Shown here: one piece after another, positions 6,074 through 64,000 of the stretch
How positions within the stretch are numbered: position 1 is the stretch's first letter
Layout: every line of letters begins with the position of its first letter
Origin: a virus
Strand: one strand, 5' to 3'
Length of the DNA: 64,000 nucleotides
Virus record (IMG/VR): IMGVR_UViG_3300044959_000131
Location: 32,001-96,000 of that record
Program-made: the position numbers and the translations under genes
The notes under the pieces: model-generated
Database searches by the model: none
Told to the model about the DNA's origin: nothing
What the model saw: only the letters and a program-made list of their open reading frames with translations

Positions 6074-7039
6074 ATGCAACTTTCCTCCGACAGACTCGGA
6101 GCTCTCGAATGGGCGTTGCAGAAGCTTTCGGCTAAGAAAGCTGGAACAAAGAAGAATCAGCCTCCAATCGGCATCCCAAAGGCAGAAGTTCTAAAGCCAG
6201 CCGAGGTGACTTTCTTCCCAGCCAAGCCAAAGGCGCCGAAAGCTCCAGCAGCAGTTACTCCTCTAATTACTGCTGCACCATCGCCAATCGTTTCTACTTC
6301 GACGCCTGCTCAGAAGAAAAAAGAGCTCGGATCGAAGAAGAAGAGCGAGCTTGAGCTGTGGGAGAAGTGGAATAGCGGTGGACGGAAGCCACAAGACCTA
6401 GACCCTCTACTCAAGTCTCTGCAACCGCTCATTGAAAATCGAGCCCGAATCTACAAGAACAACGTCGAGATTCCAAACGCGGCGATAGACTTCGAGCACA
6501 AGAGACTCGCCGTCGAGGCCCTTCAGAAGTACGACCCTTCAAAAGGCGCTTCTCTTGGAACATGGGTCTCGAACTACTTGAAGAAGGCAAGTCGATTCAT
6601 TCAAACCAACCAGAACTTTGCTCGAATTACTGAGCCCATTGCCGCAAAGATCGGAAAGTTCAACGCAGCTCGTGCCGAACTTACAGAGCGCCTAGGATTC
6701 GAACCGGATGCGCAGACGTTGGCCGAGGAGACCGGGTTCTCATTGAAGGAGATCAAGCGTCTGACCAAAGAACAGAGGAAAGGACTTGTTTCATCAGGTA
6801 TTACAGGAACAGAAGTAAGCCCTGCCCATTTACTCTCCTCACGCGAACAGGAAGTCATACACCTTATCTACCACCAGCTCACTCCTGAAGAGAGAGTCGT
6901 TCACGAGTACACTTTTGGGTTGATGGGTAAGCCGGCTCTAAAGCCGGGACAAATTGCTAAACAGCTCAAGATGGACAGCTCGAAGGTGGCCAAGATTCGG
7001 ACCTCCATCTTCAACAAGATGAAGCCTTACTTGGAGTAG
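6074..7039 (+). CDS. Phage-encoded sigma70-family RNA polymerase sigma factor with a Pro/Ala/Lys-rich N-terminal extension
   Basis: Region 2 AVEALQKYDPSKGASLGTWV, region 3 ELTERLGFEPDAQTLAEETGFSLKEI, and region 4 LTPEERVVHEYTFGL...QIAKQLKMDSSKVAKIR match sigma70 architecture. Confidence 0.88.
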   Translation: MQLSSDRLGALEWALQKLSAKKAGTKKNQPPIGIPKAEVLKPAEVTFFPAKPKAPKAPAAVTPLITAAPSPIVSTSTPAQKKKELGSKKKSELELWEKWNSGGRKPQDLDPLLKSLQPLIENRARIYKNNVEIPNAAIDFEHKRLAVEALQKYDPSKGASLGTWVSNYLKKASRFIQTNQNFARITEPIAAKIGKFNAARAELTERLGFEPDAQTLAEETGFSLKEIKRLTKEQRKGLVSSGITGTEVSPAHLLSSREQEVIHLIYHQLTPEERVVHEYTFGLMGKPALKPGQIAKQLKMDSSKVAKIRTSIFNKMKPYLE

Positions 7040-43428: not shown

Positions 43429-43437
43429 CTTACTCAC

Positions 43438-44853: not shown

Positions 44854-44864
44854 TTGTATGTCTC

Positions 44865-47383: not shown

Positions 47384-47498
47384 CGAGTGAAGATTGAAAG
47401 GGTCCCTGACGGCTGAGGCTTACGCCTCAGCCGTCGGTCTTCCTTATCCCGAAGAATGATGGTTTCTTACTATCGCCTTCGTTCAGAAGGCGGTGCCC
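47384..47498 (-). promoter_or_regulatory. Structured 5' leader of the helicase-primase-SSB operon (candidate cis-regulatory RNA)
   Basis: 12-bp perfect stem GACGGCTGAGGC-GTAA-GCCTCAGCCGTC (47408-35, GNRA loop on the - strand, no U-tract) and a 7-bp stem CGCCTTC-TGAAC-GAAGGCG. Confidence 0.5.
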
Positions 47499-47526
47499 AT
47501 ACTACTCTTCGAAGTGTCCGAGTCAA
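47499..47526 (-). promoter_or_regulatory. sigma70-like promoter upstream of dnaB
   Basis: TTGACT (47526-21), 16-nt spacer, TAGTAT (47504-499) on the - strand. Confidence 0.55.
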
Positions 47527-47832: not shown

Positions 47833-47833
47833 C

Positions 47834-48166
47834 TTAGAAAGGTGACTTTTTCTGACGGCTCTTCATGAGCTCTTGCTCAGCGAGTTTCTGATGCTCGACG
47901 CAATACTCCCTCGCCAGTTTACCAGCAAGGTCGATCGCCTGTTCAATTGTTTCTGCATCTTGGTTACAGCTCAGGGTGACTGTGACCATTGCTCCAGCTC
48001 CTGAACCGAACTCCTTGAGAGACATATCGGCTGATACTGAGACTCTGGCCTTAGCGTCACCTAGAAGCTTCTTGTAAATGTCCATGTAGCTCTCCGGTAG
48101 ATCAAACTGACCGATTTCGATTTGGTCTCCCCACGTCCTTGAGATTGAAACTTTTGGAAGCTGCAT
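47834..48166 (-). CDS. Hypothetical protein
   Basis: TGATG coupling at 48166. ARVSVSADMSLKEFGSGAGAMVTVTLSCNQD. Confidence 0.7.
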   Translation of the reverse strand: MQLPKVSISRTWGDQIEIGQFDLPESYMDIYKKLLGDAKARVSVSADMSLKEFGSGAGAMVTVTLSCNQDAETIEQAIDLAGKLAREYCVEHQKLAEQELMKSRQKKSPF

Positions 48167-49580: not shown

Positions 49581-49582
49581 TC

Positions 49583-50044
49583 CTACCTCTTGAATGGGCT
49601 GGTCACTCTTCTTTCAGGAAGAATAAGCCCAGCATCTTCAGCCTTGAGATGGACCTTTCTATCCAGGTATTCCTTGTATAGATTAAGGATAGCTAAGACG
49701 GTCTTCGGGCTCTGTGACACGACTCTGTACCAGCAGGTCGGAGCTATGTTGATTTGCCCTTGCTCGACAAGATCGAAATCTCCCATCATGTAGCTGAGTA
49801 TGACTCCATTCCCTTGCACCTGTTGTAATCGAAGAATCCTTTTTGGATTGTGTATGCAGATGAATCCGTTCTTCTTGAGTTTCTCATTGATATGATTGAA
49901 ATCATCGTCCTCGTGTAGCTCTGCCATGATCTGATCAGAACCGACGTGGAAGATGACCAAATTCTTGGCGATTACACCTCTTTGTTTCAGCTCATCGATT
50001 ACCTTGTTGACTTCTTCGTGACCATCAATCGTATTCTGAGTCAT
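49583..50044 (-). CDS. Hypothetical protein
   Basis: GGAGGAGG RBS. 153 aa. Confidence 0.7.
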   Translation of the reverse strand: MTQNTIDGHEEVNKVIDELKQRGVIAKNLVIFHVGSDQIMAELHEDDDFNHINEKLKKNGFICIHNPKRILRLQQVQGNGVILSYMMGDFDLVEQGQINIAPTCWYRVVSQSPKTVLAILNLYKEYLDRKVHLKAEDAGLILPERRVTSPFKR

Positions 50045-51488
50045 CTTCCTCCTCCTTCAACGATTTGAATTCTGCGTCGTACACGGCCTGCACGTCTGGC
50101 GGCAGAGTGCTTGGGACCTCGAAATCTGATGGTTTGAACACCTCAAATTTGAACCCCCAATGCCTCAAACTTGTACGGATGCTAGAACAGAGCTTCTTCA
50201 GTGGTGGAGCCATCCAGTCCTCGAAGACAATCATAACCGGATGCTTCTTACCTTCTCTGAACCTTTGAATACGGCCCATCGACTGCTGGAGAGCCACCTT
50301 CGACCTGAAAGGAGTCAACCAGAACAGAGTATCGAGTCTGTCATCATCAACGCCTACGGATCCGAGTCGCGCGATGGCAAAACAGAGTCGACTGTTTCTG
50401 AGTAGATCAGTCCGTTCGTTACGATCTGTCTCTGAGACAATGAGTGAAGACCCTGGAAACATCTTGTGGAAGAGCCTTAGCTGAGCCTTTGAATGAGACA
50501 GGCAAAGTATCTTTCTTCCGTTGTCGAGAGCGCGTTTGATGCACCAATATCTGTATGTGTTCCCGGATAGGTCTTTCCCTAGAATCGTTCTTAGAATTGA
50601 GACGTTCGTTGTGTTGTTGATTTTGGCTTTCTCGAAATCAATCCTTGCCGGAGTCTGTTGGAAGTAAATGTACGGTATCAGGTCTTGTTTCAGGTCCGTG
50701 TAGAACGGCTCTCCAATGTGGTATCGATAGATTGGGTCGAGCCCATCTTCCCTCTGCACGGTCGCTGTAAGACCGATACGGTCGCCGTAGAAAGGGGATG
50801 CTGTCAGGCTGAAGACAGGTGCACCAATCTGATGTACCTCGTCGTAGATGATTTGTCCGAAGTATCTGAATAACTCTTCAGGAATCCGCCCATCACGAAT
50901 CTGAAGAGCAAGTGTGGTCACCAAGGCCAATGTGACTGGATGCTTCCAATCAAACGTTTTTCCTTGGATGATACCCAGCTTGCCATGAAACCTCAGACCT
51001 GGAGGTGTCTCGCCGTCTCCGTATATTGACCTCTTCCATTGGTCCAGAATTCCGCCATCTGGAACGATGACTAGAGTTGGAACCCCTCTCTGAGCGATCT
51101 TTTTGATAGCGAGTTTTGTCTTACCCTTCCCACACCCCAAGTTGAGGATTCCATTGTCGTTCTGAGCTAACGCCTGCCACGCCTTTTCTTGCTCTTCGTT
51201 TCTCGGAACGACCAAATCCTCGAACTCGACTTTTTCAAACTCTGGACTGATGTCTACAAACGGAAACTTGTAGTTGACGTACTCAGATGGTCTTAGAAAC
51301 TCCCTCGGGCAAATGATGTGGTGCTTAGTCTCAGACCACATCCTATGAGTTTCTTGCTTCCCCTGAACGTTAACAGTGAATTCCAGAGCTCGTTGAACTG
51401 GTCCAACTCGAATTCCGGACTTTGGGAGCCATAGGCTGTTTGAGACGTAAGCTTTATCGGGTTCTTTCTCAACGAACTCCAGAATCAT
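50025..51488 (-). CDS. Superfamily II DNA/RNA helicase (UvsW/ResIII-like)
   Basis: PRNEEQEKA, GCGKGKT, TLVIVP, IYDEVH, GLTAT, QSMGRIQR. Confidence 0.9.
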   Translation of the reverse strand: MILEFVEKEPDKAYVSNSLWLPKSGIRVGPVQRALEFTVNVQGKQETHRMWSETKHHIICPREFLRPSEYVNYKFPFVDISPEFEKVEFEDLVVPRNEEQEKAWQALAQNDNGILNLGCGKGKTKLAIKKIAQRGVPTLVIVPDGGILDQWKRSIYGDGETPPGLRFHGKLGIIQGKTFDWKHPVTLALVTTLALQIRDGRIPEELFRYFGQIIYDEVHQIGAPVFSLTASPFYGDRIGLTATVQREDGLDPIYRYHIGEPFYTDLKQDLIPYIYFQQTPARIDFEKAKINNTTNVSILRTILGKDLSGNTYRYWCIKRALDNGRKILCLSHSKAQLRLFHKMFPGSSLIVSETDRNERTDLLRNSRLCFAIARLGSVGVDDDRLDTLFWLTPFRSKVALQQSMGRIQRFREGKKHPVMIVFEDWMAPPLKKLCSSIRTSLRHWGFKFEVFKPSDFEVPSTLPPDVQAVYDAEFKSLKEEEDDSEYD

Positions 51489-51501
51489 TTGTACCTCCTA
51501 C

Positions 51502-52125
51502 CTACTTATTCTCCTTGTCGTTTTTAGGCGCCCACAAGAATTGTCTGACGCCGAGAAGTAACTCACCTAGTGCTGACTCAACGGACGCAAGTAGCATGTT
51601 CTTCGCGACTCGCTGAACAAAATTCTCGTTTCCGAGCTGTGGCCGCATGACACTTGGAGTGCCCTTGAGAGCGGAAAACAGTGGGTCTTGGAACTGCCCG
51701 TACCGATCGTCGATGACGGGTATCAATGAATTGACTACGGTTGGTTGCTGAACAACTGTCCTCACCTGTGTCGGAGCCTGTATCGGAGCCTGCGGAGCAG
51801 GTTTTACTGGAATGACTTGTGGAGCAGCTGGTGGAGGTTGTGGGGCTTGAATAACCTGAGGCGTTGCGTACTGGGACTGTGGCTGGAACTGGCTAAAGTA
51901 GCTAGCCACTGGTGCCGGAACCGCTGTAGATACCGGAGCTGTCGTAGATACTGGAGCTGGGGCCGCTGTCTTGGACTTAATGGCCTGGTCCCGACACGTA
52001 TTTTGGAACCCACAGGCTCTGCACTCTCTATCCTCGTTGTCGTACTTTGAAGTTCCCCAACATGGTGGTCTCGGACCTAAAAGTTGAGAAGTCCCTGAAG
52101 GGTCTCCGTATCTAAAAACTGTCAT
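51502..52125 (-). CDS. Protein with an N-terminal Cys cluster and a Pro/Gln/Ala-rich linker
   Basis: PPCWG...ECRACGFQNTC. GGAGG RBS. First gene of the - block. Confidence 0.7.
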   Translation of the reverse strand: MTVFRYGDPSGTSQLLGPRPPCWGTSKYDNEDRECRACGFQNTCRDQAIKSKTAAPAPVSTTAPVSTAVPAPVASYFSQFQPQSQYATPQVIQAPQPPPAAPQVIPVKPAPQAPIQAPTQVRTVVQQPTVVNSLIPVIDDRYGQFQDPLFSALKGTPSVMRPQLGNENFVQRVAKNMLLASVESALGELLLGVRQFLWAPKNDKENK

Positions 52126-52201
52126 TGAACCTCCGAATGATAAGTCCGCACTGCAAAGTACTTATCCCGACAGTTTGGCCTTTATTGGTAACCCGTTTTG
52201 A

Positions 52202-52231
52202 TTGACCGAGACCCTGAATAGGGCTTAAACT
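52202..52231 (+). promoter_or_regulatory. sigma70-like promoter for the head/portal operon
   Basis: TTGACC (52202-07), 18-nt spacer, TAAACT (52226-31). AGGAG RBS precedes ATG 52263. Confidence 0.5.
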
Positions 52232-52262: not shown

Positions 52263-53639
52263 ATGAAGACCGCGGGCGTCGTTCTCGATTTCTACGATGA
52301 TGTTTCTGGTGCTTATCTCAAGAGGTTATTCCCATCCCCTGATGAACTACCAGAGTGCATTAAGACGGCTCACATTTTGACGCCAGAAGAGAGAGAGGTT
52401 CTTAGAGACGAGGCGTACGCCCTTATCATGAATCAGAACGGCAAAGTTCTACGCAAGTTTGCATGTGTAGATGAGGGCAACACAGTTCTCTCTGTTCTCT
52501 ACTTCTTGGCTAACAAGGACAAGCTTCCAGAGGAAGCAGTAAAAACAGCAGCCGCGAACCTATCATACTTTTGTGAAGAGTTCGGCCTGCCGATTCCTAA
52601 GACCGTAAAGCTGGCAGCTCGGTCTGGGATGGCACGGACCCGGGACCCAATCAAGCAGCCCATTCTCGGAGACTCCGCAGATTGGGCTCAGCGAACCAAC
52701 CTCGTTTCGGTTCGTGGAGGAGCAGACCAAGGCCGCGTCATACCAACTGCTAGTCAAATGAAGACAGCAGAAAAGAAGCAATCGAGCGATCGTGGAACAG
52801 GAGCGACTAACCTTGGTGGTGGTGAGGTTCTCACAGACGACAAGCGTCACATCGGCGTCAAATCCAAGATGCCAAGGCTGAATGAGAACGACAGAATCAA
52901 CCTCGATAGTTTCCACCGCCTCAATCCGAGTGCGAAGCCAAAGACCACGATGGTTGACGTCACCGGTAAAGAGACGAAGCCAAAAGTAAAGAGGTCTTCT
53001 GCGAATCTAACTGCCCTTGGAGGAAGATACCCACTCGACTCGATGGCTGATGTTCAAAAGGCGATTCAGTACTTCGAAGAGAATCGCAAGGAGATGGAGC
53101 CGATCGAGGTTCATATCTTCGCCGTCAAGACAGCAGCGCGCGCCGAAGAGCTCGGGTTGCCGATTCCTGAAGACATGCGCAGATACGGCTCAATCGAGTT
53201 CGCCCCAGACGTAGACTTCCACATGGCTAATAGGCTGGCTGTCTGCGCACCTGAGTACAAAGAGTTGTACACAACTCTGCGAGAGAAGAGAGCTTACATG
53301 GAGCCAGAAGAGTTCGCTGAACTCCTGACACAAGCTGATACCGTGTCCAATCTTCGATGGTATTGGGGAGGTGAGATTGCCGATCCCTACTACGCAACGT
53401 TCGGCAAGACGGCTTCTTCTTGGAGCTGGCAAAGCAGGACCGGGGACTTCGTCTCAGAGGACGACCTCAAGTGGCTCGCCAGAAATGGTCGTCCTCTCAT
53501 TCACAAACACTTCTCAAGCGAGCTTGTGAATGAGTTCATCAAGGATCCTATTGCCATCTTTGAGTCTCTACCAGATGACTCAAAGGTGATTATTGCTCGC
53601 TTGGCCGCAGATAGATTCGATGGATTGGGGGCAAACTGA
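52263..53639 (+). CDS. KTA-repeat-rich protein, probably a head/prohead component
   Basis: Six K-T-A and one K-L-A tripeptides in 458 aa. First gene of the operon that ends in the portal. Confidence 0.6.
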   Translation: MKTAGVVLDFYDDVSGAYLKRLFPSPDELPECIKTAHILTPEEREVLRDEAYALIMNQNGKVLRKFACVDEGNTVLSVLYFLANKDKLPEEAVKTAAANLSYFCEEFGLPIPKTVKLAARSGMARTRDPIKQPILGDSADWAQRTNLVSVRGGADQGRVIPTASQMKTAEKKQSSDRGTGATNLGGGEVLTDDKRHIGVKSKMPRLNENDRINLDSFHRLNPSAKPKTTMVDVTGKETKPKVKRSSANLTALGGRYPLDSMADVQKAIQYFEENRKEMEPIEVHIFAVKTAARAEELGLPIPEDMRRYGSIEFAPDVDFHMANRLAVCAPEYKELYTTLREKRAYMEPEEFAELLTQADTVSNLRWYWGGEIADPYYATFGKTASSWSWQSRTGDFVSEDDLKWLARNGRPLIHKHFSSELVNEFIKDPIAIFESLPDDSKVIIARLAADRFDGLGAN

Positions 53640-54112
53640 TGCTACACTCAACTGTTGAAGGGTTCATGTCTGGTCTCAAGGCTCTTCCAAAGGTCGGGCC
53701 AGAACGTGGTCGATTCATCACTGCTCATATGAGCCACGCACCGTTTCAATCTGCTCTGCAGGCGCATCCGCAGGGTCCTCAAATCCGTTCTATGTTGAAT
53801 CAGTACCTCAATTCGAAAGCCAATGCTGGATTGAGGCCTGGTTCCACGGTAACGAAAGCTGCGTCTATATACGCCTTCTTCGACGAACTCTACAAGATTG
53901 CGGACGCCGGTCATATTGCCGAGCTTACCGGTCTTGGAATTCTCGCAGCACCGAGCGTCAAGACTCTGTTAGACCCAAAAGCATCTAATAAGGAGAAGTC
54001 TCACGCCAAGTTTGAAACAGTAGGACTTGGAGTTCTCGCGGCGCCGAGCGCTTACAAGCTCCTTACAAAGAGGGCGGCCAGATACCACACTGGTTCACCA
54101 TACAGATGGTAG
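53639..54112 (+). CDS. Small protein with the FFDELYKIA motif and a duplicated GLG(I/V)LAAPS segment
   Basis: TGATG coupling. KAASIYAFFDELYKIAD; ELTGLGILAAPS and ETVGLGVLAAPS. Confidence 0.7.
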   Translation: MLHSTVEGFMSGLKALPKVGPERGRFITAHMSHAPFQSALQAHPQGPQIRSMLNQYLNSKANAGLRPGSTVTKAASIYAFFDELYKIADAGHIAELTGLGILAAPSVKTLLDPKASNKEKSHAKFETVGLGVLAAPSAYKLLTKRAARYHTGSPYRW

Positions 54113-54174: not shown

Positions 54175-55110
54175 GTGCAAAATCCAGAACTCGACTTGTT
54201 TGAGCGCTTGAAGGGCGTAGCTAACGTCAAGCCAACGGCTCCTTCAGAGGGGTCCGCGATGGAAGAGGAGTTGAAAAAGTCGAACCCAGACTATTCGACT
54301 CCTCTCTCCATCAGCAACCTCTTCACTCATCACGATGTTCATCCAGTCGTTCTGGATTTTGCTCTCCTCAAAGCGTTCGGCACCGATTGGTTTGGATGGG
54401 ATACGACGACGGTCTTTCAGGAAATAAAGAGAGTTTTCTCTTCGCAGATTTCTGAACACTCTCGGGCGAAGATTCAGGCTGTCAAGACCCTACATCTCGT
54501 AGGAACACCTTGGACAAGTTGGCAGGTCTTCGAGAAGATCATCCAAGCATTGAATAACAACATTCCTAGATGGGAATTGATGCAGGCACCGACTCTTGAG
54601 CAGCTCTACGCCGGCATCGACATCATGGATGAGATTCGTAGAGAAGAATTCGACGACGAAGTCAAGCAGTACATGGCTGCTGCCGTTCTGAACGAGGACG
54701 TTTTCTTTGTACCCCCTCCTCTCGACTTCATTCAGCTTGAAGTCAGTCAGCCGCACTATGTCTGCTTGGACTGCGGCAATCAAGATTCTGCCCTTTTCAG
54801 CGACGGCACTTGTGATACCTGCACACGCAAGTACGCTCCAGAGAACGGACTTTCGTTCAGGCCGGATCCTGATGTTCTAGACAGTGGTAAGGGTAAGAAC
54901 CTTAAGCTTGTGCTGAGGTTCGACCCGAGCCCAGTTGAGGCTCGGTGGAACCAGGTTTCGCATATGGCGAGTAAGGATGTAGATCTGCAAGAGAATCAGG
55001 TTGACATCCAAGTTGCAAAGCTGCTCGTAGCAAGAGATTACATGAACATTCGCAGGCGTCAACTTGCGGATCAGCTCATCGCATTGAAGTCTTGGTTGGG
55101 GTCCGCATGA
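54175..55110 (+). CDS. Hypothetical protein with a CxxC...CxxC insert
   Basis: 311 aa, GTG start. CLDC and CDTC pairs. Its stop overlaps the next ATG. Confidence 0.7.
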   Translation: MQNPELDLFERLKGVANVKPTAPSEGSAMEEELKKSNPDYSTPLSISNLFTHHDVHPVVLDFALLKAFGTDWFGWDTTTVFQEIKRVFSSQISEHSRAKIQAVKTLHLVGTPWTSWQVFEKIIQALNNNIPRWELMQAPTLEQLYAGIDIMDEIRREEFDDEVKQYMAAAVLNEDVFFVPPPLDFIQLEVSQPHYVCLDCGNQDSALFSDGTCDTCTRKYAPENGLSFRPDPDVLDSGKGKNLKLVLRFDPSPVEARWNQVSHMASKDVDLQENQVDIQVAKLLVARDYMNIRRRQLADQLIALKSWLGSA

Positions 55111-55607
55111 ACATCCACATGATTTCTGCGTTCACAGATGAACTCGAGAAGATTGCCCTCACCGAACGTGGTGCCGAAGTTTTTAGGAAGCAGGTCAAAG
55201 AGTATCGAGAAAGGGCATCGAAGCCTGGATTCAAGCGATCGCAGCAACTGCCCGGTTTCTGGAAAGGTATCATCAATAACATCCGGGCTACGGGCCGTCG
55301 ATTCAAGAATCCGAAGATGATGCTGAAACGATTCAAATGGTCGCTCACGGCTCCAGGTGTACCTAGGTACATAAAAGCCCTATCTGGACTTGGAATTGCC
55401 TATGAAGCTCGCGAAGTTTTGAAGAAAGGTGATGAAGGGACTAGCAGACTGCGACGTGCTCTTGAGGGAGCAGGAGGTCTCATTGGTGGGACTGCAGGAA
55501 GGGGGATTACTGGTTCAATTGTTGGCGGCACAGCAGGTGCGTTAATTGGAAGCCAAGCTGGTAAGGTAATCGACAAGATTCGAGGCTACAAGCCACATAA
55601 AGAGTAA
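55107..55607 (+). CDS. Basic protein with FTDELEKIA and a glycine-zipper C-terminus (candidate ejected/internal virion protein)
   Basis: Start moved to ATG 55107 (ATGA overlap). AGGLIGGTAGRGITGSIVGGTAGALIGSQAG. Confidence 0.7.
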   Translation: MNIHMISAFTDELEKIALTERGAEVFRKQVKEYRERASKPGFKRSQQLPGFWKGIINNIRATGRRFKNPKMMLKRFKWSLTAPGVPRYIKALSGLGIAYEAREVLKKGDEGTSRLRRALEGAGGLIGGTAGRGITGSIVGGTAGALIGSQAGKVIDKIRGYKPHKE

Positions 55608-55613
55608 TCAACG

Positions 55614-57674
55614 ATGTCATTCGACAGCCTCAGCCTTGGATTTGGTGGAACTTCACGCTTTTCTGGTCAGCGTGGACGTACTGCGGACGGCATGTCACGG
55701 AGCGGTATTCGTTACCCGTCTCCGTTCTTTGACATCGGACATACCTACCTGCCGCCGTCCCTCAAGGCTCTTCTCAGGTGGTGTAGGTACTACTACCTCG
55801 TGAATCCGCTCATCAACGCGGTCATTCACAAGATGTCGGAGTATCCAATCACCGAAATTGTCATCGACGAAAAGGACCCCGAAATCAAAAACAAATGGGA
55901 CTCTCTCCTTGGAGAGATTCTTCGGATTCGTCCATTTCAAATAGAGGTTGGCCTGGACTACTACACATACGGGATGTGCATTGTCACGATTCACTTCCCG
56001 TTCGACAAGTTCCTTATCTGCAGGAACTGCGGATTCAAAGACAAGGCGACGAAGATCAACTACCGTTGGCGTAACCTCGACTACATTGTCGATTGCCCAA
56101 AATGCGGCCACTCGGGACCTGCAAAGGTTCAGGACTTCTACAAGCGAGATGTCAACGGCATCCGATTGATGAGGTGGAATCCAGAGTACGTGAACATCGA
56201 TCCGGCATTTGCTGGTGCAGATCCAGTCTACACATTCGAGCTCCCACTTCAGGTCCGGAATGACGTCATCCTCGGTAAGAAGAGTGTGCTCGACACCATC
56301 CCGGACACATTCATCGAGGCGATGAAGAGGAACAAGTATGTCCGTTTCTCAGACGACAACCTCTTTGTTTTCAAGCGGCCCATCATCAGCCAGAAAGATT
56401 CTGGTTGGGGTATGCCGCTCATCTTCCCTGTCCTCAAAGACACGTTCTATCTACAGATATTGAGGAAGGCACAAGAGGCTATTGCTGCTGAGCACATTGT
56501 TCCACTCCGAGTTCTCTTCCCACAACCCGGCTCTGCATCCTCGGATCCATACTCGACGATTTCACTCGACTCGTGGAAGAGCAGGATCGAAAGCGAGATC
56601 GCGAAGTGGAAATACGACAACAACTACATTCCTATTCTCCCTCTTCCAATCGGAAATCAGACCATCGGCGGGCAAGGCCGTGCGTTGATGCTTCACCAAG
56701 AGATGGAGGTCTGGTCTAGGCAGATCGTTGCTGGGATGGGTGTTCCGCAGGAATTTGTATTCGGTGGAATGCAGTACTCTGGATCCAATGTCTCGATGCG
56801 AATGGTCGAGAACATGTTTCTTGGGTACAGAACCGATCATGATTTGATGCTCAATCACTTTGCCATCAAGCGCATCGCTCATTTCATGGGGTGGCCGCCT
56901 GTGAAGGCACACATGAGACGATTCAAGATGGCAGATGACCTACAACGTTCAGCCTTCTTCTTTCAGCTAAATCAAGCTGGAAAGATTTCAGACCAGACGT
57001 TGCTGCAAGAAGTTGATTTCGATCCAGCAACTGAGGAGACTCGTCGCAAGATTGAGCTAGACAAGCAACTTGAGTTCAATCGCAAGATGCAAGTCGCTCA
57101 AGCTTCTATTCAGGGCGAGATGCAAATCGTTCAGGCTCGCTATCAAAAGCGGGTTTCAGAGCTTATGCAGCCTCCTGCCGAGAATATGTCTCCTGTAGCT
57201 CCTCAAATGGCTGAATCCGGAGGTGGTGCTCTAGTAGAGCCGCCTCCTCCAGAGAATCCTTCAGAGAACACTGAAGGCGGTCCAGTTACGACACCGGAAG
57301 GTGAAATGCTACCTGGTAAACAAGTCGACCCGGCCATGCCTTCTAATTCGACAGTGTCATTCGAGAATGCTCAGAGTGCTCCATCAGAGGGTATCCCACC
57401 AGAGATGATGAGCCCACTCTCGGCGAGCATGAAGGGCGGTGGATTCAATCTTCTCTATTTGGCACGACGTGCGGCAACCGCGCTTCTCAAGATGGATGAA
57501 GGTCAGAGGATGGCCGAGATGAACAACATGAAGATGACCAACCCTCAGCTATACAGCCTAGTATTACAGCTTTTGAATCGCGAAAGAGGATCGCAGGAGA
57601 ATCCTCTTGATGCTGTTCAAAGCCCTCAGCCGCAGATTAAGCCCTCACGTCGTGCGAGCTCAACTGGTGTTTGA
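55614..57674 (+). CDS. Portal protein with a Zn-ribbon insertion and a long Pro/Glu-rich C-terminus
   Basis: LLRWCRYYY..NPLINAVI.KM.EYP, GLDYYTYG, WGMPLI, AIA...PLRVL, MGVPQEF.FGG..YSG are portal-type motifs. Confidence 0.8.
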   Translation: MSFDSLSLGFGGTSRFSGQRGRTADGMSRSGIRYPSPFFDIGHTYLPPSLKALLRWCRYYYLVNPLINAVIHKMSEYPITEIVIDEKDPEIKNKWDSLLGEILRIRPFQIEVGLDYYTYGMCIVTIHFPFDKFLICRNCGFKDKATKINYRWRNLDYIVDCPKCGHSGPAKVQDFYKRDVNGIRLMRWNPEYVNIDPAFAGADPVYTFELPLQVRNDVILGKKSVLDTIPDTFIEAMKRNKYVRFSDDNLFVFKRPIISQKDSGWGMPLIFPVLKDTFYLQILRKAQEAIAAEHIVPLRVLFPQPGSASSDPYSTISLDSWKSRIESEIAKWKYDNNYIPILPLPIGNQTIGGQGRALMLHQEMEVWSRQIVAGMGVPQEFVFGGMQYSGSNVSMRMVENMFLGYRTDHDLMLNHFAIKRIAHFMGWPPVKAHMRRFKMADDLQRSAFFFQLNQAGKISDQTLLQEVDFDPATEETRRKIELDKQLEFNRKMQVAQASIQGEMQIVQARYQKRVSELMQPPAENMSPVAPQMAESGGGALVEPPPPENPSENTEGGPVTTPEGEMLPGKQVDPAMPSNSTVSFENAQSAPSEGIPPEMMSPLSASMKGGGFNLLYLARRAATALLKMDEGQRMAEMNNMKMTNPQLYSLVLQLLNRERGSQENPLDAVQSPQPQIKPSRRASSTGV

Positions 57675-57708: not shown

Positions 57709-57939
57709 CTACTCGTCCGCCTTCGGGAAACAACTCTTGATCTCTAACAGCTTGAGATGCGCTTGTCGGAAGTGCTCATTTATCTCGGCCAATCTCTGAA
57801 GTAGCCCTTCAGGAGCCCCTTGATGGTGTGCTCTCTGCCAGAACCGATACTGAGTCTTCCACATCGCTAGCGCATCTTCTGCGAATCGTTCGATGTCGTC
57901 CTGCCAGATTTGCTCTTCCAAGTCAGTCTTCTGGGCCAT
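57709..57939 (-). CDS. Hypothetical helical protein
   Basis: ATG 57939 after GAGG. Overlaps the upstream stop. Confidence 0.55.
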   Translation of the reverse strand: MAQKTDLEEQIWQDDIERFAEDALAMWKTQYRFWQRAHHQGAPEGLLQRLAEINEHFRQAHLKLLEIKSCFPKADE

Positions 57940-58276
57940 CGAGCTGTGCCTCACACGCGGCACAATACCGTGCTGAGCTTAAAAGCTCTGAGTATGGAAC
58001 ACCGAACATGTCTCCTGTGAGTTCGTCGATGACGGCTTCGTACTCGTCTGTGCTATCGACGATGTTCATTACGAGGTATGCCACAGAACAGAGCTCGTGC
58101 ATGACGGCATCTCCTGTGGTGCTATCACCATCAACAACAATTGGCTGACCACTTTTTCGACCCTTCCCCAATACTCCGTGATGGATGTAAACGGACCTGT
58201 CGCCAAGAAATATTGGCCTATCACACCACTTGCACATGGTGTGAGAAGGAGGCTTGTACGGCAATTCTTCACCCAT
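57923..58276 (-). CDS. Zn-finger protein (CxxC...HxxC plus a C-terminal CxxC)
   Basis: Start moved to ATG 58276 (ATGGGTGA overlap). CKWC, HELC, CAAC. Confidence 0.7.
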   Translation of the reverse strand: MGEELPYKPPSHTMCKWCDRPIFLGDRSVYIHHGVLGKGRKSGQPIVVDGDSTTGDAVMHELCSVAYLVMNIVDSTDEYEAVIDELTGDMFGVPYSELLSSARYCAACEAQLDGPED

Positions 58277-58490
58277 CGATTCGTTCTCCATGCGCACCGA
58301 TGAGTGACATCGGAGCACCGCTCTTCACTGGACAGAGGTAGTGCGCATACCGCTCATCGGATCCATCGTCGAAACGTCTTCGTAGAAGTGTGAATTTAGG
58401 GTATAGATCTTCGTTCTTGAATCGATAGACTGTCAGTCGAAGAATCCAGTCGTCCTCCTTGAATTCTTCACCGCAGATGCAGCAGTTCAT
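58269..58490 (-). CDS. Small Zn-finger protein (CxxC...HxxC)
   Basis: MNCCICG...AHYLC. ATGA-coupled. Confidence 0.7.
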   Translation of the reverse strand: MNCCICGEEFKEDDWILRLTVYRFKNEDLYPKFTLLRRRFDDGSDERYAHYLCPVKSGAPMSLIGAHGERIDG

Positions 58491-58891
58491 GTTGTTCTTC
58501 TAAGAACGAGTTGAAGAACCATCGATCCCCATCCACATCGAGTGCATCCATCCAAGAATCGTTCTGGCTCAACCAACTCCCTGTCCTCAGGTGGACCGCG
58601 ATACCTGCTTGACTGATAAAACTTAGGTGTCCACCTTGGTGTATCTTTGGTCTCCTCTAGGCAGTGAACACATTCCCATCCAATCTGGAATCCTTCTGCT
58701 GCCCTCTCATTGCACCATCGAACGAGAAGCTCGCACTCTCCACAGTCGTACGCTTCATCGCATTTGCCTCGAATGAACGTTCTGGCCTCCTGAGTCTGTC
58801 GAAAGATGGGACGACCTTTCTGGTCGAACTGACCACCATTCGCTGCGAACAAAAGTGGGCAGAAGGCTACTCGGACCGGGTTTTCAGGCAT
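58487..58891 (-). CDS. Cys-rich protein
   Basis: CGEC, CVHC and CTRC pairs. Confidence 0.7.
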   Translation of the reverse strand: MPENPVRVAFCPLLFAANGGQFDQKGRPIFRQTQEARTFIRGKCDEAYDCGECELLVRWCNERAAEGFQIGWECVHCLEETKDTPRWTPKFYQSSRYRGPPEDRELVEPERFLDGCTRCGWGSMVLQLVLRRTT

Positions 58892-58979
58892 TTTGCTGGA
58901 GTTTTACTAGTGCCGCCGTAAGTCTGGCGGCGAGGTAAGTCATGAAGCTCAGAAAAAATGAAGCTAAGAAGAGTTTCAT
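58884..58979 (-). CDS. 31-aa hydrophobic peptide (missing from the ORF track)
   Basis: MKLFLASFFLSFMTYLAARLTAALVKLQQNA. Its start overlaps the upstream stop (ATGA) and its stop overlaps the downstream start (ATGCCTGA). Confidence 0.65.
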   Translation of the reverse strand: MKLFLASFFLSFMTYLAARLTAALVKLQQNA

Positions 58980-59116
58980 TCTTCCTCGGTCTCCGTCTCG
59001 TCGACAGCGTCTTCGTCGTTTTCTTCGTCTTGCTCAGTCGGATAAAGAATTTGCCCCAAGATCGAGTTCATCAAGTCTTCTTGGAACATGTCCAACTGAG
59101 TAACTTCTTTTGGCAC
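58976..59116 (-). CDS. 46-aa protein with a highly acidic C-terminus
   Basis: GGAGG 7 nt before GTG 59116. Tail EQDEENDEDAVDETETEEE. Confidence 0.6.
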   Translation of the reverse strand: MPKEVTQLDMFQEDLMNSILGQILYPTEQDEENDEDAVDETETEEE

Positions 59117-59190
59117 TGTCAGGCCTCCGATTCTTGAGGCCAGCGTATCGCTGACCAACTTCTTATACCGAGGCCTATTGAGGTTCTTCG

Positions 59191-59220
59191 TTGACGTTAT
59201 TTACGAGCAGACTGTATTCT
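59191..59220 (+). promoter_or_regulatory. sigma70-like promoter upstream of the RNAP gene
   Basis: TTGACG (59191-96), 18-nt spacer, TATTCT (59215-20). Confidence 0.55.
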
Positions 59221-59314: not shown

Positions 59315-62300
59315 TTGTCGACGCTAACACCAGAGGGTTCTTTCGAAATTCTCAAGAACAACGTCGTACGCGCCATCTCTTCCTACTTCCCCTACGAGGG
59401 AAAACAGAGGAAGTTGGAGCTACACAAAGTCTGGGTTGATGACAAACTTCATACTGATGACATCAAGTCACAGACTGAGGCAAAGGACCTAGACAAGACG
59501 TGGGGCGTACCAGTCAAGGCAGATGTCTCTCTCGTCGACAAAACGACAGGCAAAGTCATCGATCGAAAGACGATGACCATTGCCAGATTACCGAAGATGA
59601 CGAACCGGTACGGGTTCATCGTCGATGGGAATGAGTACCAGATCGACCATCTCTTCCGTTTGAAGTCCGGGGTGTACGCCAGAATTCAGGACAACGGCGA
59701 CCTGGAGTCAGAGTTCAACCTCGTCAAGGGACCTGCTGGTAACAGGTTCTCAATCCTCCTTGAGAGAGAGTCCAAGAAGTTCTTCCTGAAGCAGGGGGAC
59801 GCAAAGATTCCACTATACCCAATACTCAAGTCTCTAGGTGTATCAGACGATGAGATTGAGAAGAGTTGGGGAAAGGAAATACTCGCTGCCAATCGACCAA
59901 AAACCGAAGAGAAGACCTTAAAGAGTCTTCAGACCTTTTGGAAGAAGACGTCGTTCGAAGACCAGACGGAGCCGAGTGATTTAGGTGGTTATGCCCGCTA
60001 TGTACACGACTTCTTCGATAAGACGGTCCTTCGACCAGACACAACAAAGATCACTCTTGGAAAGCCAGCAACTAAGGTTGATGGTTCTGTTCTTCTGACG
60101 GCCGCGAACAAGATTCTCGGTGTTTCTAGAGGGACCCATCAGCCAGACGATAGAGACAGCCTTGCGTTCAAGGAGATCGTATCGATAGAGGACTTCCTGC
60201 CAGAGAAGATTGAGCGATCCATGAGGACGATTCGTGGAAAGCTCCGTAACACGATTGACCTCAAAGACAAGAAATCTGTCTCTGAAGTTTTGTCTACTGA
60301 CCTTTTTGCTCGCCCAATCCGTGAGTTCTTCACAAAGGGCGGCTCTTTGACGGAGAGGCCTGACCAGACGAATCCTATTCAAATGATGTCTGGTCACAGG
60401 AAGACGACGTTGATGTCTTCCGACCTTGGAGGAATCAAGAAAGAACATTCCATCACGGATGAGATGCGTGTCATCAATCCGAGCCACTTTGGGTTTCTAG
60501 ACCCAATGCATACCCCGGAGTCAGAGAAAACAGGCATCACTCTACATCTGGGAATGGCGGCTAGGAAAAATGGAAAAGATCTTGAGACTCCTGTCTTCAA
60601 CGTCAAAGAAAACAAGATTCAATACCTAAATGCAACAGACTTTCATAACAGTCATGCTGTTCTACCAGACCAGGTTCGCTGGGTCGGTGGCAAGCCTGTT
60701 CCGATAGCCGAAAACGTCAAGATGAAGCTCCCAGGTGGGAGCATCGAGGTTCGACCATTCAGAGAAGCTCAATACGTCATGCCGTCCGCAAAGGGCATGT
60801 TCGACATCGCTTCGAATCTCATACCTTTCTTACCATCGAACCAAGGCAACCGTGTTTCGATGGCTGATAAGCAGATGGAGCAGGCCATCTCTCTAAAGTA
60901 TAGAGAGGAGCCTCTCGTACAAACCAAGACCGACCATGCGGACCCGAATCTGACATTCGAAAAAGTTCTCGGTGGGTTCACATCTCATAGAGCTCCAGTC
61001 TCAGGTAAAGTCGTCTCCGTAAAGAACGATTCAATTACCATCAGTGACGGTAAGAAAAAGCACCAAGTTCATCTCTATGAACACTTCCCCCTCAACGACC
61101 CAAAGGGGATGATGCACTCAGAGCCTGTCGTGAAGGTCGGAGACACGGTCCGACAAGGACAGGTTATTGCTGACAACAACTTCACCAAGAATGGAACGCT
61201 CTCGCTTGGAGTGAATCTTCGTGTCGGATACATCCCTTACAAGGGCTACAACTACGAAGATGGTATCGTTATATCTGAGAGCGCCGCAAAGAAACTCACG
61301 TCCGAACACCTCTATAAGAAGAAGATCGAACTCGATCCTGAGAACGACGTCATTTCAAAGAGCAAGTTCATCGCTTATGCTGCTACCAAAGCCAATCAGC
61401 TAACAAAAGAGCAGCTTGATCTATTGGACGATGATGGAGTCATTCGAGTTGGTTCCAAGGTTCGTCCAGGTCAAGTTCTGATTGCAGCAGTCGGTAAGAA
61501 CCTTACGACACGCCAAGGTAGTGCTCTCGCAGCTCTAGGAAAGAGGGCCTTTCAGCCGTACAAGGATAAGTCACTTGTATGGGACGAAGACCACGTTGGC
61601 GAAGTCGTAAAGGTCATCAAAGATCCATCTGGAAAAGGGGTCAAGGTATACGTCAAAACTGAAGAGCCACTGGTTGTAGGTGACAAGTTGTCAGGCCGTC
61701 ACGGTAACAAAGGAATCGTGACGATGATCCTTCCTGACCACGAGATGCCGTTCACCATAGACGCCGACGGAAAACGACGTCCACTTGAAGTCCTTCTCAA
61801 CCCAACAGGTGTTCCAACACGTATCAATGTTGGTCAAGTTCTGGAAACGGCGGCCGGTAAAATTGCTGAGAAGACAGGAAAGCCGTACATCGTCAATAAC
61901 TTCTCAGGCCCGAACACGAACTACCGTGAACAGGTACTGAAAGACCTTCGTGCTCATGGCCTTAGAGACGAAGAGCTTGTCTACGACCCAAAGGACCCGA
62001 AAAGGCCACTTGGCTCGGTTCTCGTCGGTCCTCAGTATCTTTTGAAGCTTAAGCATCAAGTTGAGAAGAAGCTCACAGTTCGTGGAGGTGGGACGGATGT
62101 TACCGGTCGTGGACTTCCATACGATATAGATAGGACCCCGACAAAGGGAGGAGAGAGAGGGGGCCAAGGCTTTGGAGCCCTCGACGTCTACGCCCTTCTT
62201 GGACATGACGCTCGCCATAATCTTCGTGAGATGGCGACTCAAAAATCCGACTTCCAAGACATGACGTTCTGGAACATGGTCCAAGAAGGCCATGAACCAC

Positions 62301-64000
62301 CTCCCCCGAAGCCGCCGTTCAGCTACGAAAAGTTTGTCAGTCTACTGAAAGGTCTCGGAGTCAACGTCGAAAAGAAAGGAACGGCTCTTCAACTCTCTCC
62401 ACTCACAGACCGTCATGTCATCGAGATGGCTGGAGGCCATAAGGGTGAGTTGAAGAATCCACATCTCGCCCTTCGAGCTAAGGACCTGAAAGAAGAACGT
62501 GGTGGTCTGTTCGACCCAGTTGCGACTGGCGGTATCGTTGGAGACAAGTGGAGCTATATCAAGCTCACGGAGCCGATGCCGAACCCAATCTTCGTCGGCT
62601 CAAACAACCGTCCTGGACCCATTCCGGCTCTACTTGGATTGAAGCTCAAAGAGCTTGATGAGGTCATGAAAGGCGTTCGACAGATCGACGGTAAGACAGG
62701 TGGCATGGCCATATACGATGCCTTGAAAAAGGTTGACGTCGACAAAGAACTCGCTGCTCTTCGTGAGAAGCTTCCTACACTCACAGGTGCAGCTCTCGAC
62801 CGTGCGAATAAGAAGTTCAAATATCTGTCGGCTCTGAAGGAAGCAGGTCTGAAGCCTCATGAAGCGTACGTCATGAACGTAGTTCCGGTCATCCCTCCGG
62901 TGTTCCGACCTGCTACCGTCACACAAAATGGCGATGTTCAGTACTCGTCTTTGAACGGACTATACAAAAACATCGCCATACTCAACAACAAGCTCAGCGA
63001 AGTAGATCCAAAGGTATTCTCTGAAGAACACAGGTCTCCTCTTCGCTGGCAGCTCTACGACAGCCTGAGGGCTCTTCAATCGGTTGGCGGTTCCGTCGGC
63101 TACGACATCGACTCTCCAGGAAGCAAGAGAAAGTTAAAGGGAATCCTCGACATCATAGGTGGAGGAGAGGGTGAGCAGCCGAAGGAAGGCTATTTCCAGT
63201 CCAAGCTGGTCAAGCGAAGGCAGAATCTATCCATCCGCTCAACAATCGTTCCAGAGCCAAAACTTGGAATCGATGAAGTAGGTATTCCAAGAGGCGCAGC
63301 GATGGAGTTGTACAAGCCATTCGTTGTAGCCGAGCTAGCTCACCACGGCTTTGATCCTCTATCTGCTCAGCAAGAGATGAGGAACGGAACGAAGGCTGCG
63401 TACGACGCACTTGAGAAGGTCATCAAGGAACGGCCTCTTCTTCTCAAACGCGATCCAGCTCTTCACAAGTTCTCGATCATGGCCTTTACACCTAGGCTCG
63501 TAGAGGGAAAGGCCATTCAGATTCATCCTCTAGTTACTGGTGGATACAACGCCGATTTCGACGGTGACACGATGGCCGCAACTGTCCCTCTAACAAGAGA
63601 GGCCGTCGAAGAAGCGAAGAAGATGTTTCCTTCGAAGAACCTCTTCTCCCCTACAACCGGTGGTGTAATGTATTCGCCGACTCAAGAAGCGCTCCTCGGA
63701 CTTCATCTTCTTTCGAAGTGGGGCAAGCCTATCGGCAAAACATTCTCAAACCCACTCGAGCTGAACAAAGCTGTTCAGAGAGGAGAGGTTCACCCAACAG
63801 ACGTCGTAAAGGTAGGAAACAAGGAAACGACATTTGGACGATTGCTTCTTGAGTCTAGAATGCCAAGGGACTTCTACCTCAATAAAGACATTCTCCACAA
63901 CCCATCATTCGTTATCGACAAGAAGACACTCAATAGCCAAATCATCACACCTCTTGCTAAGAATCACACTCGAGAATTTGCTTCCGTCGTTGACGAATTG
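59315..64000 (+). CDS. rpoBC: Fused DNA-directed RNA polymerase beta-beta' subunit (3' truncated by the window end; missing from the ORF track)
   Basis: Hand translation shows no stop from 59195 to 64000 (TTG 59315 follows a GAGG RBS; ATG 59246 is an alternative start). Beta motifs: LPKMT..GFIVDG, DQTNP, PSHFG, NLIPFL, GYNYED, GDKLSGRHGNKG, NPTGVPTRIN, GGQGFG. Beta' motifs follow in the same frame: GGLFD, VPVIPPVFRP, KEGYFQSKL, RDPALHK, YNADFDGDTM (63548-63568). Confidence 0.97.
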   Translation, partial: MSTLTPEGSFEILKNNVVRAISSYFPYEGKQRKLELHKVWVDDKLHTDDIKSQTEAKDLDKTWGVPVKADVSLVDKTTGKVIDRKTMTIARLPKMTNRYGFIVDGNEYQIDHLFRLKSGVYARIQDNGDLESEFNLVKGPAGNRFSILLERESKKFFLKQGDAKIPLYPILKSLGVSDDEIEKSWGKEILAANRPKTEEKTLKSLQTFWKKTSFEDQTEPSDLGGYARYVHDFFDKTVLRPDTTKITLGKPATKVDGSVLLTAANKILGVSRGTHQPDDRDSLAFKEIVSIEDFLPEKIERSMRTIRGKLRNTIDLKDKKSVSEVLSTDLFARPIREFFTKGGSLTERPDQTNPIQMMSGHRKTTLMSSDLGGIKKEHSITDEMRVINPSHFGFLDPMHTPESEKTGITLHLGMAARKNGKDLETPVFNVKENKIQYLNATDFHNSHAVLPDQVRWVGGKPVPIAENVKMKLPGGSIEVRPFREAQYVMPSAKGMFDIASNLIPFLPSNQGNRVSMADKQMEQAISLKYREEPLVQTKTDHADPNLTFEKVLGGFTSHRAPVSGKVVSVKNDSITISDGKKKHQVHLYEHFPLNDPKGMMHSEPVVKVGDTVRQGQVIADNNFTKNGTLSLGVNLRVGYIPYKGYNYEDGIVISESAAKKLTSEHLYKKKIELDPENDVISKSKFIAYAATKANQLTKEQLDLLDDDGVIRVGSKVRPGQVLIAAVGKNLTTRQGSALAALGKRAFQPYKDKSLVWDEDHVGEVVKVIKDPSGKGVKVYVKTEEPLVVGDKLSGRHGNKGIVTMILPDHEMPFTIDADGKRRPLEVLLNPTGVPTRINVGQVLETAAGKIAEKTGKPYIVNNFSGPNTNYREQVLKDLRAHGLRDEELVYDPKDPKRPLGSVLVGPQYLLKLKHQVEKKLTVRGGGTDVTGRGLPYDIDRTPTKGGERGGQGFGALDVYALLGHDARHNLREMATQKSDFQDMTFWNMVQEGHEPPPPKPPFSYEKFVSLLKGLGVNVEKKGTALQLSPLTDRHVIEMAGGHKGELKNPHLALRAKDLKEERGGLFDPVATGGIVGDKWSYIKLTEPMPNPIFVGSNNRPGPIPALLGLKLKELDEVMKGVRQIDGKTGGMAIYDALKKVDVDKELAALREKLPTLTGAALDRANKKFKYLSALKEAGLKPHEAYVMNVVPVIPPVFRPATVTQNGDVQYSSLNGLYKNIAILNNKLSEVDPKVFSEEHRSPLRWQLYDSLRALQSVGGSVGYDIDSPGSKRKLKGILDIIGGGEGEQPKEGYFQSKLVKRRQNLSIRSTIVPEPKLGIDEVGIPRGAAMELYKPFVVAELAHHGFDPLSAQQEMRNGTKAAYDALEKVIKERPLLLKRDPALHKFSIMAFTPRLVEGKAIQIHPLVTGGYNADFDGDTMAATVPLTREAVEEAKKMFPSKNLFSPTTGGVMYSPTQEALLGLHLLSKWGKPIGKTFSNPLELNKAVQRGEVHPTDVVKVGNKETTFGRLLLESRMPRDFYLNKDILHNPSFVIDKKTLNSQIITPLAKNHTREFASVVDEL

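Follow-up and report, generated by a model that had tools for sequence, protein, structure and literature searches.

Known phage RNA polymerases and natural beta-beta' fusions

Multisubunit RNA polymerases (RNAPs) in which the C-terminus of the beta subunit is joined to the N-terminus of beta' are found in Helicobacter and other Campylobacterales and in Wolbachia and other Anaplasmataceae, and two-barrel RNAPs are also encoded by phages such as phiKZ and AR9. Here, we describe a phage gene (59315..64000, plus strand, continuing past the window end to 65575) whose product joins beta to beta' in the same way, and a sigma70-family factor encoded by open reading frame (ORF) 6074 of the same phage. 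Both genes lie in the window, the 64,000-nucleotide stretch of DNA analysed, which comprises bases 32001-96000 of the 176,945-bp IMG/VR virus record IMGVR_UViG_3300044959_000131 (completeness estimate 93%); coordinates refer to the window. We consider it rather probable that these two proteins, without alpha, make up a sigma-dependent polymerase with a single-chain core that recognises GGnATAAG promoters and is probably brought in by the virion. Relative to the known kinds, namely phage multisubunit RNAPs, natural beta-beta' fusions, and virion RNAPs, this system is a variant.

The cellular fusions share the polarity of the junction, but they are enzymes of ~2800-2900 amino acids (aa) that act together with alpha and omega, whereas the phage enzyme is ~700 aa shorter and lacks the zinc-binding domain. 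The phiKZ and AR9 polymerases likewise contain neither alpha nor omega, and one of their sets is packaged in the virion for early transcription. However, they are far more diverged, are built from four or five polypeptides in two paralogous sets instead of one fused gene, and have no sigma70-type factor (PMC7824862), in contrast to the recognisable sigma in the family described here. Assignment of the window's enzyme to the phiKZ/AR9 type was rejected because of these split subunits, the missing sigma, and far weaker PHROG hits (E 1e-26 to 1e-8). Coliphage N4 would be comparable if our favoured reading holds, as it also injects a virion polymerase that reads phage early promoters, and its virion genes, including the polymerase gene, are under host-consensus-like promoters. 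The N4 virion RNAP is a single-subunit, T7-like enzyme using hairpin promoters, though, whereas the enzyme proposed here combines a bacterial-type two-barrel core and a sigma, and its promoter is bipartite, of the -35/-10 type. Moraphages were ruled out as related, as those phages carry no RNAP, and a full-text literature search returned nothing specific on a fused phage RNAP with a sigma.

The multi-subunit-RNAP Caudovirales (mReC) of Weinheimer and Aylward (2020) are likewise metagenomic tailed phages, with beta and beta' found by COG or Pfam models and placed outside the cellular clades (PMC7481178). An earlier model-generated annotation of the window (the sequence-only reading) had named this group as described from metagenomes. 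The record resembles it in so far as it is a tailed-phage contig whose beta and beta' are detectable by cellular models. The likeness does not extend to gene organisation, as the available text of the mReC study describes separate genes for beta (about 960-1490 aa) and beta' (about 900-1370 aa) (PMC7481178). The study mentions neither a sigma nor a fusion within mReC (PMC7481178). Sample identifiers of six relatives of the window's phage were absent from the mReC contigs, the one hit in the mReC supplement being merely a TerL reference contig. The mReC capsid family PF07068 (VOG11186) has no match at E <= 1 in this genome, and the mReC-type TerL PF03237 (VOG01069) matches with 22.6 bits, just above the cut-off. 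Because the mReC genes described are separate and the mReC capsid family is not detectable here, we do not file the phage as mReC.

Salmonella phage Arash (OQ632216) shares 15 collinear proteins with this genome, including portal (E 4e-78), RNAP, TerL, major capsid protein, sheath, baseplate, and sigma. The RNAP and sigma of Arash and of Vibrio phages D69, D148, and D181 are 32-34% and 29-30% identical to those of this phage, respectively, and in all four phages a 1525-aa protein aligns to residues 40-1528, corresponding to beta plus the N-terminal part of beta'. As this protein spans the junction, the beta/beta' fusion is common to all of them and only the later split within beta' differs: the Arash and Vibrio phages encode the rest of beta' as a second protein of ~606 aa, whereas the whole of beta' is in a single chain with beta here. 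In Arash, the portal (gp204) neighbours the RNAP (gp206), as in the window, and sigma (gp10) is encoded among baseplate/structural genes. The Arash sigma has 234 aa and lacks the ~85-aa leader of ORF 6074. The sequence-only reading had considered such an enzyme biochemically uncharacterised. The system is less unknown than this implied, since Arash and the three Vibrio phages carry the partial fusion together with a sigma, and the available text of the Arash paper reports the proteins in virions (PMC10585845). The same text annotates these proteins without any discussion of the fusion, the promoter, or the missing alpha (PMC10585845).

A single reading frame encodes beta and beta'

The open plus-strand frame runs from 59195 across the window end to the window-equivalent position 65575 (genome position 97575). 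Extension of the gene beyond the window thus yielded the full ORF that the sequence-only reading had seen in part, with 2109 aa from the first ATG (59246) or 2086 aa from a TTG at 59315. The latter is the likely start: it is preceded at a distance of 5 nt by a GAGAGGG ribosome-binding site, agrees with the N-termini of 14 relatives, which begin 3-8 residues ahead of LTPEGSF, and gives a protein of the same length as its 87% identical relative P0004. Pfam recognises Rpb2 domains 2, 3, 6, and 7 followed by Rpb1 domains 1 to 5 on this one protein. Rpb2_6 (PF00562) scores 214.5 bits against a cut-off of 23.4; Rpb1_2, Rpb1_3, and Rpb1_5 exceed their Pfam cut-offs and Rpb1_4 does so marginally. In the PDB, the top matches (E 1e-119 to 1e-103) are to beta' chains of bacteria belonging to many phyla, all scoring similarly. 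Judged from its sequence, the fused protein is the catalytic core of a bacterial-type multisubunit RNAP in the form of one polypeptide.

The anatomy of the enzyme was derived from an alignment with E. coli beta and beta' and 23 family members. The beta module (59315..62383, plus strand) comprises ~1023 aa counted from the TTG; its final residue (1046) aligns with E. coli beta E1342, and beta' starts at once. Neither a stop codon, a frameshift, nor a long linker is found at the beta/beta' junction (62342..62500, plus strand), where LLKGLGVNVE occupies 62342-62371. This bears out the uninterrupted beta-beta' polypeptide and the beta end near 62371 that had been read from the letters. The linker of ~10 aa proposed at the same time has to be revised, as 24 residues lie between VNVE and GELKNP. 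The end of beta and the ERGGLF motif are only 37 residues apart, compared with 57 in E. coli beta', which leaves practically no free linker; the beta' N-terminus is instead shortened, the loss amounting to ~20 residues.

A further reduction concerns the zinc-binding domain of beta', which is deleted at 62490..62575 (plus strand). The alignment has a 32-column gap at this site, E. coli C70, C72, C85, and C88 are absent, and no displayed member of the aligned family has a Cys in the gap. In contrast to this domain, the second zinc site (C814, C888, C895, C898) is retained. The flap tip of beta (61484..61567, plus strand), 4 aa shorter than in E. coli, and the beta' clamp helices (62921..63100, plus strand), the predicted docking site for sigma, are also retained at the positions reported earlier. 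So is the catalytic NADFDGD (63548..63568, plus strand), at residue 1412 from 59315 as first described and at residue 1435 from the ATG, with D1437-D1441 invariant across 38 family members. The bridge helix and the trigger loop's N-terminal part align with E. coli, and an SI3-type insertion is lacking. In the E. coli alignment, the rifampicin pocket carries the replacements Q513E, F514R, S531T, and I572T, which suggests that the enzyme may be insensitive to the drug.

Recurrence of the fusion and its evolutionary position

A search of 5.8 billion proteins yielded more than 120 clusters (90% identity) among the matches listed, 49-94% identical to the window's enzyme and nearly all 2080-2130 aa long, on contigs of up to ~220 kb. 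When the beta' half was used as query, the best 150 representatives (50% clustering) had mostly the fused layout, with identities down to 36%. In most of these 150, beta' starts at around residue 1000 in a protein of ~2000-2100 aa, or later if inserts are present; about a tenth are shorter proteins or fragments with no readable layout. In each of five genomes checked, the RNAP is encoded by exactly one gene, whose frame of 2105-2126 aa is uninterrupted and open across the same junction; three of these genomes have terminal repeats at sizes of 196-209 kb. As judged from these sequences, the family is a very large group of myovirus-like phages of about 180-210 kb.

Since bacterial rpoB and rpoC lie next to each other, loss of a stop codon might in principle join them, and the gene could have arisen through faulty assembly or gene calling, or through recent capture of a cellular rpoBC operon. 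We give this explanation next to no credence. The identical uninterrupted fusion in hundreds of independent assemblies, over identities down to 36% and with five uninterrupted frames, excludes chance or misassembly. Recent capture is unlikely because the phage RNAP is just 26-32% identical to any bacterial enzyme and forms a clade of its own. In a FastTree phylogeny based on the concatenated beta and beta' sequences (35 rows by 2007 columns, with 17 bacteria that represent at least 9 phyla), which is the only tree program used, was flagged for compositional heterogeneity, and has no archaeal outgroup, the fused family, Arash, and Vibrio D69 form one clade (support 100) and all 17 sampled bacteria a separate one (support 100). 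The Wolbachia fusion (L113) and the Campylobacterales enzyme (L125, two overlapping ORFs in the assembly) are placed inside the bacterial clade. In this tree, the enzyme branches outside all sampled bacteria and not within a cellular clade, the placement that would have refuted the sequence-only reading. In addition, no close relative was found in 185,579 species genomes except phage-sized contigs binned into metagenome-assembled genomes (MAGs), and the beta' half alone as query found none.

These contigs (L068-L073, 71-176 kb) carry the fused RNAP and were binned in MAGs labelled Desulfatibacillum, Anaerolineales, Leptolyngbyaceae, and Deltaproteobacteria. The binning may be either an error or a weak hint at hosts; the Anaerolineales and Leptolyngbyaceae labels would fit the hot-spring mat source of the window. 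Many relatives are considerably longer, at 2400-4739 aa (P0005, P0011, P0019, P0022, P0067, P0082, P0090, P0297), with one or more inserts in the RNAP gene, and intein/homing-endonuclease domains (PF14528, PF14890, PF05204) are on record for some of them. In the beta' half, the first insert is often located around residue 394, not far from NADFDGD. The RNAP gene in the window has no intein/homing-endonuclease insert.

Two further sequences stand between the groups of the tree. A 15-kb contig from a Bacillus sp. MAG (L074:5980-12933) encodes a different single-ORF beta-beta' fusion of 2318 aa with 29% identity, which branches outside both the phage family and the bacterial clade, between them, and may represent a second phage lineage with a fused polymerase. 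In the cultured Rhizobium phage RHph_TM30 (L148, Kleczkowskaviridae, 207 kb), a beta' of 1127 aa with 27.6% identity is encoded by itself, beside a gene for DNA polymerase A. This beta' is also placed between the fused clade and Bacteria and might reflect an mReC-like, unfused state.

A sigma70-family factor accompanies the polymerase

The second component, ORF 6074 (6074..7039, plus strand, 321 aa), was assigned to the sigma70 family by Pfam, PHROG, PDB, and fold matches. A conserved N-terminal peptide, ALEWALQKLS, and a leader that is variable and rich in Pro/Lys precede its sigma2-sigma3-sigma4 core, which starts at about residue 86. Sigma70_r3 (PF04539) matches residues 192-238 with 27.9 bits (cut-off 25.3), phrog_351 matches residues 148-320 (E 1.5e-11), and phmmer aligns residues 145-245 to residues 126-228 of sigma-S in PDB (E 2.8e-5). 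An AlphaFold model built with 41 homologues has a mean predicted confidence (pLDDT) of 77.7 and retrieves sigma-S, sigma-B, and sigma-A chains with probability 1.00, mostly over ~250-290 columns. These matches agree with the sigma70-type assignment first made from the ORF translation, and as modelled, ORF 6074 is a diverged sigma70-family protein with a full-length sigma fold including the region 4 helix-turn-helix.

The pairing of the polymerase with its own sigma, also part of the sequence-only reading, is supported by co-occurrence. Of the 102 clusters in the sigma family, many are located on large contigs that also encode the RNAP, and all five related genomes with the fused RNAP have an orthologue of ORF 6074. 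In the phage database, sigma matches come exclusively from the four phages that also hold a related RNAP. A predicted complex of RNAP residues 1047-1520 with sigma residues 86-321 reached an interface score (ipSAE) of 0.83, compared with 0.00 for the best of three controls; of the solved complexes, 58 of 80 attain this mark, as do 2 of 110 mismatched pairs. The runs share at least 52% of their contacts, with a pLDDT of at least 75 for the partner, and the modelled interface brings the clamp helices (RNAP 1223-1273) together with sigma residues 132-147. Because sigma-core complexes have already been solved, the high score may reflect likeness to them and is no proof of binding. According to this model, sigma would dock on the clamp helices of the phage RNAP.

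Alternatively, the sigma could redirect the host core RNAP, with the fused polymerase using another factor or none. Phage sigmas that reprogram the host core are common in large phages (PMC7824862). The shortened flap tip and the lost zinc-binding domain of the phage enzyme also point in this direction, as they alter part of the surface usually contacted by sigma. We nevertheless regard this alternative as improbable, given that members of the sigma family are found only alongside this RNAP family, that the sigma is modelled on the phage clamp helices (with the reservation just made), and that the candidate promoter element, GGnATAAG, is conserved across phages of 51-63% G+C and in a Salmonella phage.

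Alpha and omega are not encoded

Six-frame searches of the whole 176,945-bp record for alpha (PF01000, PF01193) and omega (PF01192) gave no match at E <= 10, which extends to the entire record what had been noted for the window. PF01000 was also without a match in four complete relatives, so that an alpha gene is absent from all five genomes checked; omega was sought in this genome only. The search controls gave matches in 14 of 14 genomes.

The fused core could still depend on a host alpha dimer, and perhaps on omega, as an assembly platform, resulting in a phage-host hybrid enzyme. The beta-beta' fusions of Helicobacter and Wolbachia keep alpha, which favours such a dependence. On the other hand, the polymerases of phiKZ and AR9 work without alpha, the covalent fusion removes the main assembly role of alpha, and the enzyme, if packaged, must work on arrival. 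Together with the lack of an alpha gene in five family genomes and of an omega gene in this one, this makes a hybrid enzyme unlikely in our view, and we infer that the phage polymerase is independent of host alpha.

A strand-specific promoter-like element

A candidate recognition sequence became apparent when strand was taken into account; k-mer enrichment upstream of all genes had given only weak signals (ATAAGT, CTTCTTA). The exact element GGNATAAG occurs 24 times on the minus strand and never on the plus strand of this genome, and minus-to-plus counts are 25:0 and 15:0 in two complete relatives. In three more relatives, counts on the strand opposite the RNAP gene versus the RNAP strand are 24:1, 12:1, and 15:0, which brings the total over the six genomes to 115:2. 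The Arash genome has 36:7 in the same orientation, while a reversed-pattern control gives 7:8. None of 21 single-base variants, including the sigma70-like GGNATAAT, is strand-biased. Half of the 24 sites in this genome (12) fall within the 6% of sequence that is intergenic. Within the 64-kb window, GGNATAAG is no commoner than in shuffled sequences (5 found, 3.8 expected), indicating that the signal lies in strand and position and not in the count.

Upstream of the element, CAAAW is conserved at -19 to -15, 14 nt ahead of GGnATAAG, with A at -17 in 52 of 64 sites, although CAAAW played no part in site selection. The composite element reads xCAAAW-N16-nATAAG with GG at the extended -10 position. 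On sequence criteria, it has the geometry of a sigma70-type promoter with a different consensus, notably G at -7. A T at -7 of the -10 element is near-universal, and sigma factors read the -10 element through it. In a single pairwise alignment with sigma-S, mapped manually to sigma70 numbering, W433 is replaced by N and Q437 by K in ORF 6074. Replacement of these two residues, which act at -12, tentatively fits the degenerate -12 position of the element.

The element occurs at the heads of gene groups on the strand opposite the virion genes. A GGTATAAG copy at 59162..59169 (minus strand) faces away from the RNAP gene and heads a small cluster (57709-59158); its position, -123 to -153 upstream of the RNAP gene, is kept in 15 of 15 relatives. 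A GGGATAAG copy at 52161..52168 (minus strand) is at the head of the minus-strand replication module, another at 47443..47450 (minus strand) is upstream of the gene for a DnaB-like helicase, and two further GGnATAAG elements (34259-34266 and 35071-35078, minus strand) lie inside this module. In Arash, the same GGTATAAG element is found on the strand opposite the RNAP gene; most of its 30 sites precede a ribosome-binding site and start codon by 22-60 nt. That phages of 51-63% G+C and a Salmonella phage have the element in common speaks for a reader carried by the phages themselves, and ORF 6074 is the sole sigma-like gene found. The enzyme reading GGnATAAG would thus be the phage holoenzyme.

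A scan for strand-asymmetric words found no promoter motif specific to the plus strand, and the leftover asymmetries look like effects of codon usage and terminators. In two genomes, TTTTAGC is strongly biased to the same strand as GGnATAAG (15:3 and 13:5).

Host-type promoters and virion delivery

The RNAP gene itself is preceded by a bacterial-consensus-like promoter, TTGACG-N18-TATTCT, at 59191..59220 (plus strand), and 10 of 15 relatives likewise have TTGAC-N18/19-TAnnnT upstream of theirs. With a spacer of 17-19 nt, this promoter type has 1-3 intergenic sites per genome, too rare for statistics; two of the three such sites here head long plus-strand blocks. At the heads of plus-strand blocks, it can stand back to back with an antisense GGnATAAG element, as at 59191-59220 and 52202-52231 in the window, and the same arrangement was observed in L017, L018, L021, L022, L025, L027, L028, and L031. 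The TTGAC-type promoter would fit either an N4-like scheme, with host RNAP transcribing the virion genes, or a T7-like scheme, with host RNAP producing the phage polymerase early.

Our preferred mechanism follows the former. Region 2 of sigma would dock on the retained clamp helices of beta', and the resulting two-protein holoenzyme would recognise xCAAAW-N16-nATAAG, with GG at the extended -10 and G in place of T at -7. This promoter would drive genes opposite the virion-gene strand, including the replication module. The polymerase and sigma, made together with the virion genes, would be packaged, delivered with the DNA, and start transcription in the next cell. Packaging is suggested by analogy with Arash. 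According to the available text of the Arash study, Gp206 had the most spectra of all proteins (3516) in mass spectrometry of purified virions, above the major capsid protein, Gp216 had 1210 spectra, sigma Gp10 reached 100% coverage, and a role in early transcription was suggested by the authors (PMC10585845).

The main rival is a non-virion polymerase following the logic of T7, in which host RNAP with its primary sigma transcribes the RNAP and sigma genes early from TTGAC-N18-TAnnnT, the phage holoenzyme then takes over at GGnATAAG, and nothing is packaged. The host-type promoter upstream of the RNAP gene here and in the 10 relatives speaks for it, as do the sites heading two long plus-strand blocks, and the Arash authors, in the available text, allow that abundant enzymes may co-purify with virions (PMC10585845). 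It is at odds with the top spectral count of the Arash polymerase and the full coverage of its sigma (PMC10585845, as available). It also accounts less well for the location of both genes in virion-gene blocks, by portal and baseplate genes, a position kept from this phage to Arash. We judge this rival to be a serious but somewhat unlikely explanation.

Several observations weigh against the virion-delivered, alpha-independent holoenzyme that we favour. Packaging is not observed directly in this phage, and the available text of the Arash paper cautions that abundant infection proteins can contaminate virion preparations (PMC10585845). The TTGAC-N18-TAnnnT promoter would let host RNAP make the enzyme after infection and therefore fits a non-virion, middle-gene polymerase equally well. 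For most plus-strand genes, no promoter class was identified. In Vibrio phage D69, which has a related RNAP and sigma, GGNATAAG is unbiased (11:13), so that the link between promoter and polymerase does not extend to all of the wider clade. Independence from alpha is backed by no more than an absence of evidence, given that the host's alpha might yet be recruited. Sigma70_r2 (PF04542) of ORF 6074 scores 12.5 bits, below its cut-off of 24, and the phylogeny has the limits given with it above.

Genome context

The record contains genes for portal, TerL, major head protein (matching phrog_2522), sheath, and baseplate proteins, and the genome is, by this gene content, that of a myovirus-type phage. 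The portal protein gene (55614..57674, plus strand), identified by its PHROG match and by tblastn to the Arash portal (E 4e-78), lies shortly before the RNAP gene, and a baseplate-like gene immediately follows the latter. TerL, major head protein, and sheath are also encoded on the plus strand, and a baseplate wedge gene is near the sigma gene; both the RNAP and the sigma gene thus lie within virion-gene blocks and on the virion-gene strand. The replication module (32966-52125, minus strand) includes genes for thymidylate synthase, a Cas4-like exonuclease, a UvsX-like recombinase, family A DNA polymerase, primase, the DnaB-like helicase, and a further helicase. DNA of the phage is present in hot-spring and microbial-mat metagenome runs, which may be its source sample, and no RNA run is listed among the sequencing runs containing it.

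Within the replication module, the family A DNA polymerase is seemingly split between two minus-strand genes (41368-43437 and 48756-49580). The 689-aa protein corresponds to the polymerase part of phrog_17 and the 274-aa protein to positions 477-619 of the same profile.

Seven proteins with no other relationship share a short cassette, F-x-[DNS]-E-L-x-K-I-[AS], mostly near the N-terminus; six of the seven are encoded in plus-strand virion-gene blocks. Three are in the window (5142-5624, at residue 10; 53639-54112, at residue 80; and 55092-55607, at residue 14), and the others are products of genome genes g16, g123, g137, and g204. The ALEWALQKLS at residue 10 of sigma (6074-7039) is similar, and its W13, L15, K17, and A20 are conserved in the sigma family. 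The N-terminal cassette could be a capsid-targeting or prohead-protease signal.

Implications

Bacterial RNAP is thought to need an alpha dimer for assembly. A chain of ~2090 aa uniting beta and beta' and a sigma, with no alpha, omega, or beta' zinc finger, carried in the virion and directed to a bipartite promoter with G at -7 that is conserved across phages of unrelated hosts, could conceivably be the smallest self-sufficient bacterial-type transcription machine known, although in this full form the claim is one we hold with some doubt. If true, the system would be a compact model for the role of the accessory parts of RNAP and for the rewiring of sigma specificity. With a single-gene core, one factor, and a short promoter, it could also serve as an orthogonal expression system. 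As Arash is in culture, every inferred step is directly testable. For the phages themselves, the enzyme would, if the reading is true, be a model for escape from host transcription and host-directed inhibitors, and given the great size of its family in metagenomes and a position outside the sampled bacteria, it bears on the origin of phage polymerases.

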